Source: Promethearchaeota archaeon
Lineage (GTDB): Archaea > Asgardarchaeota > Lokiarchaeia > Sigyniarchaeales > SOKP01
Length of the DNA stretch: 10,612 nucleotides
Direction: 5' to 3'
Assembly: GCA_016839585.1 (NCBI GenBank)
Contig: JAEOTZ010000082.1
Span: forward strand, 1 to 10,612
This document shows, in pieces, positions 5,758 to 10,386 of the stretch; position 1 is the first letter of the stretch; each line of letters starts with the position of its first letter. The position numbers were made by a program, and so were the translations under genes. Under the pieces are notes generated by a model, which worked only from the letters and a program-made list of their open reading frames with translations, ran no database searches and was not told the origin of the DNA.

Positions 5758-5934
5758 AGAATTTAACTAAAAATAATTTCTATAATTAAAATAAAAGTTC
5801 AAAAAATTACAGATATGGAATACTCTTTTTTTTTTAAAAAATTGATATTAATTAATTATTAAATAATTTTATTTTTAAAGTATAATTTCTAAAATACCAT
5901 TGATTAATCAAACTGCAAATTTGTTGTGTTTTAT

Positions 5935-7644
5935 ATGAAAACTGAGGCATATATTAGGAAAATAATTGAAAACACTGGTTTAGAAAGAAAGGAAATTGAA
6001 CAATTAGTTGAAGAAAAGAAGACAGAGTTAAAAGGTTTAATTTCTGATGAAGGTGCTTTATTTATTATTGCTAAAGAGTTAGGAGTTGATATAAAAGAAG
6101 AAACTAAAAAACTCCTAGAAGATATTGATATCAAGGTTGTTGACATCAACGTAAATATGAGAAACATAACTCTGATAGGCAGAATTAAAGAAATCTATGG
6201 TATCTTCACTTTTAATAAAAGTGATGGTAATATTGGAAAAGTGGGATCCTTTTTATTACATGATGATACTGGAGATATACGAATTGTCTTATGGGACGAA
6301 CACATAAATATTTTTAAAGAAAATAATTTTGTTAAAAATGAATTGGTTAAGATTTTAAATGGATATGCCAAAAAAGGTAAATATGAAGAATTTGAAATTC
6401 ATATAGGTAACTTAGGAAAGATAATCTTATCACCCGAAGATGTTGATTATAAAAATTATCCTAAAATAAAGGAGGAATTTATCCCAATAAGTAGTCTTGA
6501 TTTAACAATGAAATCAGTTGCTATTGAAGGAAAAGTAATACAAAATTATCCAATAAAAGAATTTGTAAAAAAAAATGGTGAAAGCGGAAAGGTAGGATCT
6601 CTTATTTTGATGGATTCTACAGGATCTATAAGAGTTACTTTTTGGAATGAAGAAACTCAAAAAATTAAAGAAATTAAAGAGGGAGATTTTACTTCAATTA
6701 CTAATTTGAATCCAAGATTAAGCAATCTTGATTCTACAACAATAGATTTATTTGCTACTTCTAGTTCAAATGTTACTAAAATAGATAAATTTATCCAACT
6801 AGAAGTTGAATTAGTTGAAAATATTAACCAACTTCAAAGTAGACAAAATATTGTCTCATTTAAAGGGATAATATATTCAATAGATGACCTAAAAAAAGTT
6901 ACTTTAAAAACAGGAGAAGAAATCTCATTATTAAATTTAGAGGTGAGTGATGAGACTGATGCAATAAGAGTTAGTATTTGGGGAGATAAAGCAGAGGAGT
7001 TATCTAAAACCCTAACTGTTGGTCAAGGAATAATATTAAAAAATGTTTTACTTAAAACGTTTGCAGGTAGAAAACAAGTCTCTTTTAGAAAAGATTCAAT
7101 TTTAGAAAAAATTGATTTAAAGATTTCAAATCTTAAAAGTATAGAGTCAAAAATAGATATAACCAAAAAAAATTTTACAAGAAATTATACTAAGATTAAT
7201 AGAATTGATTCTTCGAATTTTTATGAAATTAAAGGATCCATAAATGAAGATTTAACAGATAGAAATATAATAATCTATGATGCATGTTCAAAATGTTTAA
7301 AAAAAATTGATAGATGTATGTGCCAAGATAATAATACACTTATAAAAAGGATGATTATTAAAGCATTTGTAGACGATGATAGTGAAACTATTAAAACTAT
7401 TTTTTTTAATGAACAAGCTGAAAAATTAATTGAGAAAAATGCTGAAGAAGTTTCTAAAAACCTCAATAATAAAGATTTTTTGGAAGATTTATCAAAAAAA
7501 TTAAGATCTAAGAATTTAGTAATTAAAGGTAAAGCAGAATTCAATGATTATAATAATATTAACAGATATGAATTAAAAGTTAATGATTTTCAAGATATGA
7601 ATGTTACTGAAGAATTAGAGGAAATAATGAAAGAAATAGAATGA
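5935..7644 (+). CDS. rpa: Replication protein A large subunit (multi-OB-fold ssDNA-binding protein)
   Basis: Helical N-terminal domain (LKGLISDEGALFIIAKELGV), three OB folds with D.TG.IR..W motifs (DDTGDIRIVLW, DSTGSIRVTFW, DETDAIRVSIW), and a fourth OB fold with Zn motif YDACSKCLKK..CMC and DDSETI..FNEQAEKL. ATG 5935 is preferred over GTG 5926. Confidence 0.92.
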   Translation: MKTEAYIRKIIENTGLERKEIEQLVEEKKTELKGLISDEGALFIIAKELGVDIKEETKKLLEDIDIKVVDINVNMRNITLIGRIKEIYGIFTFNKSDGNIGKVGSFLLHDDTGDIRIVLWDEHINIFKENNFVKNELVKILNGYAKKGKYEEFEIHIGNLGKIILSPEDVDYKNYPKIKEEFIPISSLDLTMKSVAIEGKVIQNYPIKEFVKKNGESGKVGSLILMDSTGSIRVTFWNEETQKIKEIKEGDFTSITNLNPRLSNLDSTTIDLFATSSSNVTKIDKFIQLEVELVENINQLQSRQNIVSFKGIIYSIDDLKKVTLKTGEEISLLNLEVSDETDAIRVSIWGDKAEELSKTLTVGQGIILKNVLLKTFAGRKQVSFRKDSILEKIDLKISNLKSIESKIDITKKNFTRNYTKINRIDSSNFYEIKGSINEDLTDRNIIIYDACSKCLKKIDRCMCQDNNTLIKRMIIKAFVDDDSETIKTIFFNEQAEKLIEKNAEEVSKNLNNKDFLEDLSKKLRSKNLVIKGKAEFNDYNNINRYELKVNDFQDMNVTEELEEIMKEIE

Positions 7645-9241: not shown

Positions 9242-9574
9242 TTAACTTTTTTTTGTTTTTTCTTGAATAAGGATATTTTCTTCAGGAAATCCTAAATCAA
9301 TTAAAAACTTTTTCATCTTAAAACGATGATCTCCTTGAAGTTCAACCTCGTTATTTCTTACAGTTCCGCCTGAAGCACACTTTTTCTTTGCTTTTGTTAA
9401 GATATCTTTAAGATTAACATCAAAGTTCCCTACAAATGTTATTACTGTAACCACTCGCCCCCATTTCCTTGTGTCATTAGATATTATTATTTGTTGCTCA
9501 TCAGCACTTAAGCCTTCACAAATACATAGTTCTTTTGGAAAACTACATATTGGACAAATGTCGTCGTCTTTAAT
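9242..9574 (-). CDS. sui1: Translation initiation factor aIF1 (SUI1/eIF1 family), 110 aa, probable non-canonical ATT start
   Basis: The frame is open upstream of the track's GTG (9454): (I/M)KDDDICPICSFPKELCICEGLSADEQQIIISNDTRKWGRVVTVITFVG...KKKCASGGTVRNNEVELQGDHR. CPxC..PKELCxCE is the standard archaeal aIF1 N-terminus. The frame is closed by TGA at 9586-9584, with no ATG/GTG/TTG between it and 9454. Confidence 0.9.
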   Translation of the reverse strand: MKDDDICPICSFPKELCICEGLSADEQQIIISNDTRKWGRVVTVITFVGNFDVNLKDILTKAKKKCASGGTVRNNEVELQGDHRFKMKKFLIDLGFPEENILIQEKTKKS

Positions 9575-9583
9575 ACTCTCTTT

Positions 9584-9592
9584 TCACAACCT
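9584..9592 (-). promoter_or_regulatory. Shine-Dalgarno-like element (AGGTTGTGA) upstream of the aIF1 ATT
   Basis: GGTTGTGA matches GGAGGTGA at 6/8 positions and ends 9 nt before the ATT. The divergent GTPase gene has GTGA 9 nt before its ATG. Confidence 0.45.
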
Positions 9593-9659
9593 TTAATATT
9601 AAAATCTTTTTAAAATACAATACTTGAAAAATAATAGAACAATATCTTTTAAAAATCTT

Positions 9660-9852: not shown

Positions 9853-10386
9853 ATGCAAAGTTCATGGATATTTAAAGTAATTGTGGCAGGGGCTGGCGGA
9901 GTTGGAAAAACTGCTATGATAACTCGTTATTGTACAGGGAGATTCGAAGAAGGGTATAAAATGACTATAGGTGCAGGTTTTCATACAAAATCTGAAATTC
10001 TTGATACAGGAGAAGCTGTTAAAATGCAACTCTGGGATTTTGCAGGAGAAAAACGTTTTCGCGAACTTCTACCTGACTATTGTAAAGGGGCTAGTGGAGC
10101 ATTCATATGTTTTGATATAAGTGATTATGATACATTTAGAGAAATACCTGAATGGCTTAAGATCATCCGCCAAAAGGCTGGATTTATACCAATAATTCTC
10201 ATGGGTATGAAATGGGATCTACCCAACCATGAAGTTGTTTACGAAATTGCAAATGATTATGCTGAAAAAGCTAAATGTAACCAGTGTGTATTTTGTTCTT
10301 CGAAAGGAAATATCAATATAACAGATTCTTTTCAGGCTATGGCAAAATGGTTAATCTATTATGCCACTCAAACAAATAAGATATAA
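9853..10386 (+). CDS. Rab-like small GTPase (Ras superfamily)
   Basis: G1 GAGGVGKT, G2 T(IG), G3 WDFAGE, G4 MKWD, G5 SSK. RabF-like motifs IGAGF, KMQLW, RFREL, YCKGA and ICFDIS are present. There is no C-terminal prenylation Cys. Confidence 0.93.
   Translation: MQSSWIFKVIVAGAGGVGKTAMITRYCTGRFEEGYKMTIGAGFHTKSEILDTGEAVKMQLWDFAGEKRFRELLPDYCKGASGAFICFDISDYDTFREIPEWLKIIRQKAGFIPIILMGMKWDLPNHEVVYEIANDYAEKAKCNQCVFCSSKGNINITDSFQAMAKWLIYYATQTNKI

Follow-up and report, generated by a model that had tools for sequence, protein, structure and literature searches.

The single gene for translation initiation factor aIF1 (SUI1) in the Asgard archaeon studied here very probably begins with AUU, and this weak start codon seems to have been held on the gene by selection. 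The window analysed is a stretch of 10,612 nucleotides, contig JAEOTZ010000082.1 of assembly GCA_016839585.1, from a Loki-type archaeon whose assembly has a G+C content of 29%. As the most likely reason for the retention of AUU we propose negative feedback, by which aIF1 would limit initiation on its own mRNA, and we give this explanation as a whole, i.e. the AUU start, its selective maintenance and the feedback taken together, a probability of about 0.5.

The aIF1 gene and its gene models

The first-pass annotation of the window had recognized the gene as aIF1/SUI1 of an Asgard archaeon, and profile and structure comparisons agree with this assignment. The predicted protein scores 66 bits against PF01253 (SUI1; cut-off 25.5), covering profile positions 2-77, and 114.6 bits against NCBIfam NF002096 (cut-off 98). 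Its residues 5-103 align with residues 3-101 of aIF1 from Methanocaldococcus jannaschii (PDB 4MO0; E 9e-25), including the N-terminal Cys knuckle that both proteins possess; the aIF1 proteins of Pyrococcus abyssi and Sulfolobus solfataricus are members of the same family. All four cysteines of the CxxC...CxC knuckle are invariant across 21 Asgard families, and the gene is the only SUI1 copy in an assembly that is 99% complete. Judged by homology, the host aIF1 should bind the small ribosomal subunit and discriminate against non-AUG codons.

Names and taxonomic labels of the related database proteins vary. At NCBI such archaeal aIF1 proteins are labelled as "stress response translation initiation inhibitor YciH" (e.g. 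P0001, P0002, P0008), the bacterial name of the same SUI1 fold. In the databases, the closest proteins bear the labels Promethearchaeota or Lokiarchaeota; at about 90% identity there are also proteins labelled Odin-, Hod-, Heimdall- and Hermodarchaeota, even though the query is of Loki type, which suggests loose labelling of assemblies. Some genomes of the family have a diverged second SUI1 paralog of about 60% identity (G212, G221), with further second matches in G024, G007 and G161; the start region of the paralog comprises a canonical GAGGTGA, 8 nt and then ATT, with the GTG of the Shine-Dalgarno sequence in frame.

Table 1. Features of the aIF1 locus (positions in the window)
Feature	Position	Strand	Basis
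aIF1/SUI1 coding sequence, from the probable ATT start to the TAA stop, 110 codons + stop	9242..9574	-	frame read; PF01253, NF002096 and 4MO0 matches
ATT, probable start codon	9572..9574	-	invariance in genus; family-wide codon counts; NCBI models of relatives
Second in-frame ATT	9559-9557	-	frame read
First Cys codon	9556-9554	-	frame read
In-frame TGA closing the frame upstream of ATT	9584..9586	-	frame read
Stop codon TAA	9244-9242	-	frame read
N-terminal zinc knuckle CPICSFPKELCIC	9518..9556	-	C3, C6, C13, C15 invariant in 21 Asgard families; aligns with CPRCGLPKELCVC of 4MO0
SUI1 domain	9284..9499	-	PF01253 positions 2-77
GTG within the SUI1 domain, first canonical start of the frame, from which the 70-aa gene call begins	9452..9454	-	ORF reading; record P0097
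SD-like element AAAGGTTGTGA, interrupted match to GGAGGTGA; contains in-frame TTG-TGA and out-of-frame GTG	9584..9594	-	kept across genera
Two AT-rich blocks TTCTATTATTTTT, ATTTTAAAAAG, candidate BRE/TATA promoter	9606..9640	-	conserved in genus consensus and across genera; promoter role putative

On the minus strand the start region reads AAAGG TTG TGA AAA GAG AGT ATT AAA GAC GAC GAC ATT TGT CCA ATA TGT (Table 1). Between the in-frame TGA and the zinc knuckle the host gene contains no canonical start (ATG, GTG or TTG). The first-pass annotation had placed the first Cys codon 10 codons below this TGA and 34 codons above the GTG at 9454, and had named ATT 9574 and ATT 9559 as the only codons one base away from ATG between the TGA and that Cys; both the counts and the codons proved right.

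The same annotation expected gene callers to truncate the gene or to miss it. This is true of Prodigal-type callers, but NCBI PGAP starts the relatives at ATT (MKDDDICP...). The record for this window (P0097) is a 70-aa protein that begins at GTG 9454, the ORF given by Prodigal-type callers, and the JGI, ENA and Logan records of this protein have 64-91 aa. It is extremely unlikely that this 70-aa protein is the real product, or that the gene is broken or misassembled: GTG 9454 lies within the SUI1 domain, and translation from it would cost aIF1 40 conserved codons, the zinc knuckle among them, which are under purifying selection and align to solved aIF1. A broken gene is also at odds with the occurrence of the same layout in 56 independent assemblies and with the position of this gene as the sole SUI1 gene of a nearly complete genome.

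As to the surroundings of the gene, a Ras-family small GTPase (9853-10386, plus strand) is divergent from aIF1 and shares with it a common intergenic region of 278 bp; an RPA-like single-stranded DNA-binding protein with several OB folds (5926-7644, plus strand) and a PfkB kinase are further neighbours. The Ras-family GTPase and the RPA-like protein represent typical Asgard gene content.

The start codon and the element upstream of it

The start region was compared in 56 genomes of the family, representing 12 genera (the host, 30 other species of its genus, and 11 other genera). At the fixed start position we found ATT in 50 genomes, ATA in 4, ATC in 2 and ATG in none, which is the outcome the first-pass annotation had said would support its model, namely ATT, ATA or ATC in the relatives and no ATG. 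In all 30 other species of the genus the ATT is unchanged, while the remaining isoleucine codons of the same stretch are distributed among ATA (100), ATT (43) and ATC (20), and the isoleucine codon directly before the first Cys exhibits synonymous variation within the genus. The fixation of ATT at a position where ATA would be the preferred isoleucine codon counts for a start at this codon. Variable sites in codons 1-42 of the 30 congeners are distributed as 10/6/32 over the three codon positions, from which it follows that these codons are translated and under purifying selection. All 56 genomes have an in-frame stop a few codons before ATT; in most congeners the TGA is directly followed by an in-frame TAA, and two congeners (L004, L011) have an in-frame TAG one codon before ATT. 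In the genus, as in most of the other genera, there is no canonical start between the stop and the knuckle, the exceptions being genera g12, g18 and g19, in which the GTG of the SD-like motif is in frame, four codons upstream of ATT. As the same layout recurs in all 55 further genomes of the family, it is due neither to chance nor to an assembly error. On the strength of the conserved codon, of the coding-type variation that follows it and of the NCBI models, we conclude with high confidence that translation of aIF1 starts at ATT 9574, as the first-pass annotation had suggested.

The element AAAGGTTGTGA, which stands 8-9 nt before ATT, shows almost no letter changes between genera. The 3' end of 16S rRNA in the genus is GGATCACCTCC(T), and comparison with this tail identifies the element as a Shine-Dalgarno sequence with two central mismatches. 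Its core motif GGTTGTGA has been kept letter for letter across genera, with no drift to GGAGGTGA. The first-pass annotation had put this motif (9591-9584) at a distance of 9 nt from ATT, which we confirmed; the element is not a weak one. The predicted energy of its duplex with the 16S tail is -7.9 kcal/mol here and -9.3 kcal/mol in the form common among relatives, i.e. the predicted pairing is stronger than that of 90% of the ATG genes of this genome, the median of which is -3.2 kcal/mol. A "doubly weak site", combining a weak Shine-Dalgarno sequence with a weak codon, was considered and dropped on the grounds that the duplex energy is in the genome's top 10%; with pairing this strong for the genome, the AUU site may in fact be reasonably efficient. 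The spacer of 9 nt compares with a genome mode of about 6, which means that some 3 nt more separate the element from the start than at the modal position. No RNA structure around the start was predicted beyond that of shuffled controls (z -0.9).

The TTG-TGA and the GTG within GGTTGTGA also suggest a different reading, in which translation would begin upstream, at TTG or GTG, and reach the aIF1 frame by read-through or recoding of TGA, by a +1 frameshift, or by termination and reinitiation after a tiny ORF. The TTG-TGA is indeed in frame with aIF1, and in this genome the GTG opens an ORF of 5 codons, whose TAA overlaps the ATT (ATTAA); as noted above, the GTG is in frame in genera g12, g18 and g19, and the same holds for a paralog. 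Some public calls read MWKKS..., i.e. TTG followed by TGA taken as W. However, the TAA that directly follows TGA in most congeners rules out read-through from TTG, and the ORF opened by GTG does not have a conserved end: it ends earlier or runs on in other members of the family (G157, G163, G171, G175 and genus g22), and genus g17 lacks the GTG altogether. Therefore neither frameshifting nor translational coupling is a conserved mechanism, and the +1-frame ORF was rejected. Besides, the G-rich run abuts both TTG and GTG, so that neither codon has a suitable Shine-Dalgarno spacing, and the NCBI models begin at ATT. Taken as a whole, an upstream start is very unlikely. The metagenome calls that begin with MWKKS... 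(TTG TGA AAA...; P0003, P0012-P0014, P0017, P0021-P0024, P0031) look like calls made under a wrong genetic code, with TGA read as Trp. The in-frame TTG-TGA and the out-of-frame GTG might act as decoy start sites.

A search for the initiator tRNA with aragorn and by pattern did not find it in this assembly, in which aragorn reports only 11-18 tRNAs in total. An anticodon arm GGGCTTCAAACCC with the anticodon TCA and a tRNA-like context was observed on the minus strand of contig C86, near index 7886, and possibly belongs to tRNA-Sec.

Near-cognate starts in other lineages and in other genes

The other four families sampled from this class begin aIF1 with ATA, TTG or GTG, and among the 70 genomes of the class, from five families in all, there is no aIF1 with ATG. 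Elsewhere in the phylum we found ATA after AGGAGG in two families, ATT, ATA or TTG in one, GTG or CTG in a large family, CTG in one and GTG in three. On the other hand, ATG is used by the Freya-, Atabey-, Odin-, Jord- and Hod-type families and by several others, and since so many Asgard families carry it, a weak aIF1 start is evidently not required. Among 73 non-Asgard archaeal genomes, sampled by a conserved-peptide scan from an alignment of 5 sequences and biased towards sequences resembling the query, aIF1 begins with ATG in 69, with TTG in 3 and with GTG in 1, and differs in this respect from aIF1 of the host. No link was seen between the loop residues of aIF1 and the type of start codon. 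In Jordarchaeum madagascariense (L245) the gene reads ATA GCA CAA CAA at the place of the Freyarchaeial ATG GCA CAA CAG, with an ATG and a GTG of the same frame a few codons before it; here, too, aIF1 may have turned to a weak start.

AUU is not peculiar to aIF1 here, which weakens the argument of the first-pass annotation: ATT, ATA, ATC or ACG is also the start codon of at least 17 more genes of the genome. They emerged from a screen of 3603 open frames of 100 codons or more, after removal of the shadows of longer frames (of 362 candidates from a first screen by coding score alone, 242 only shadowed longer ORFs and were set aside). We identified 117 non-shadow frames whose 5' part looks coding over at least 18 codons and contains no canonical start; 17 of them have a six-base Shine-Dalgarno sequence at the 5' end, and in all 17 cases an in-frame ATT, ATA, ATC or ACG follows 3-9 nt downstream (loci L167-L183; e.g. 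L174, C86:8881-10134; L178, C19:5128-5862; L172, C54:16176-17252). In at least 7 of the 17 genes a Pfam domain reaches upstream of the first canonical start; for instance, the GFO/IDH/MocA fold begins at residue 1, ThiF at residue 10 and a glycosyltransferase at residue 7. In about 100 more open frames, too, the 5' part looks coding but lacks a canonical start. The 17 genes with their Shine-Dalgarno sequences, together with the upstream Pfam domains, indicate that near-cognate starts are a general habit of this genome. Because such starts are common, standard callers cut or miss real genes in these genomes, and the sole aIF1 of this one has been shrunk to a 70-aa fragment.

For three of the other genes (ThiF, a GFO-type and an HdrD-like gene; L184-L243, L324-L348) the start codon was traced through the same family. 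The first codon of the ThiF orthologs is ATT in about 14 cases, ATG in 13 and GTG in 1, with swaps even within one genus. In the GFO/IDH/MocA oxidoreductase ATT is confined to the host genome and its nearest relative (2); ATG, with Leu as the next codon, is found in about 23 orthologs. The HdrD-like gene has ATT, ATG, TTG and GTG in different members of the family. In all three genes ATT stands exactly at the position of the orthologs' ATG, which argues that ATT works as a start codon in this lineage, and near-cognate starts come and go fast in ordinary genes. The small initiation factor aIF1A served as a control: its gene starts with ATG in 28 of the 30 family genomes compared.

Probable selection on the start codon and possible feedback

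With at least 17 other near-cognate genes in the genome, autoregulation in this lineage cannot be read from a weak codon alone. What distinguishes aIF1 is its constancy. None of its 56 starts is ATG, as opposed to the swapping seen in three other genes, a comparison that involves few genes and related genomes, so that the 56 genomes stand for far fewer independent events. Given that ATT and ATG replace each other in these three genes and never in aIF1, and that aIF1A mostly has ATG, we consider it probable that the weak start of aIF1 is kept by selection.

According to the proposed mechanism, the only aIF1 mRNA of the host would be translated from the AUU at 9574, read by initiator Met-tRNA through near-cognate pairing, with the interrupted Shine-Dalgarno sequence GGUUGUGA, 9 nt upstream, placing the small subunit. 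Selection would keep the start codon weak, and aIF1 on the small subunit would disfavour AUU; much aIF1 would then mean less initiation on its own mRNA, and little aIF1 would mean more. In vitro, Sulfolobus aIF1 permits complexes on AUG and blocks those on AUU (PMC4705826). That the host aIF1 restrains initiation at its own AUU in this way, with a response to the aIF1 level that we infer, is in our estimate a serious possibility, a little short of an even chance. Its best indirect support is that other genes in these genomes exchange ATT for ATG, whereas aIF1 never does.

The chief rival is an AUU start without feedback, in a lineage that simply tolerates near-cognate codons backed by Shine-Dalgarno sequences, so that AUU on aIF1 would set a fixed modest rate or be frozen history. 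We regard this as a possibility of some weight, yet one that more probably fails than holds. It is in accord with the near-cognate genes found elsewhere in the genome, with their strong Shine-Dalgarno sequences and their Pfam domains upstream of canonical starts, with an aIF1 duplex that ranks in the genome's top 10%, and with the many Asgard families that do well with ATG on aIF1. However, simple tolerance does not readily account for a gene that has no ATG in the family, or in the class, where other genes of the family exchange ATT for ATG, which argues for gene-specific selection, and there are many other means by which a low rate could be fixed.

Feedback by aIF1 on its own start would have counterparts in both other domains. 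IF3, the product of bacterial infC, is made from an AUU start under translational autocontrol (Butler et al. 1987, as cited in PMC4705826), and eIF1 is autoregulated via an AUG in poor context (Ivanov et al. 2010, as cited in PMC6237735 and PMC4705826). In the case of infC the likeness is close, as the gene of a start-codon fidelity factor begins with AUU, has long kept this codon, and encodes a protein that disfavours AUU. IF3 and aIF1 are, however, unrelated proteins, and the feedback is proven for infC, whereas for aIF1 of the host it is proposed. The two settings differ as well: to our knowledge, very few genes of E. coli besides infC start with AUU, whereas the host genome has at least 17 genes with near-cognate starts. 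Eukaryotic eIF1 (SUI1) is homologous to aIF1, has the same small-subunit role and likewise has a poor initiation site on its own mRNA, but this site is an AUG in poor Kozak context that is reached by scanning, and not a near-cognate codon with an SD-like element as in the host. Thus, the conserved weak start on aIF1 fits, but does not prove, a self-limiting feedback of the IF3 or eIF1 type. Papers and reviews on aIF1 and archaeal initiation (PMC6237735, PMC7531240) describe no regulation of aIF1 synthesis, and neither a non-AUG start nor self-control of aIF1 appears in the aIF1 paper, in the 2014 review or in the 2020 review of archaeal initiation. The first-pass annotation knew of no account of such a loop for archaeal aIF1, and the searchable literature holds none for archaea, nor one of the AUU start, but the start itself is already present in NCBI gene models.

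It is also conceivable, if rather unlikely, that AUU on aIF1 serves as a cell-wide set-point of start-codon stringency. The factor would be held at the level at which initiation on AUU is just workable, which would make AUU, AUA and AUC usable for at least 17, perhaps about 100, genes, and the output of these genes would move with the availability of aIF1. If this is true, the archaeal lineage closest to eukaryotes would possess a start-codon regulon. In Bacteria (IF3, with AUU) and in eukaryotes (eIF1, with AUG in poor context) a fidelity factor is controlled via a poor start on its own mRNA, and the conserved AUU on aIF1 of Loki-type Asgard archaea would provide an archaeal case, in the very protein that eukaryotes inherited.
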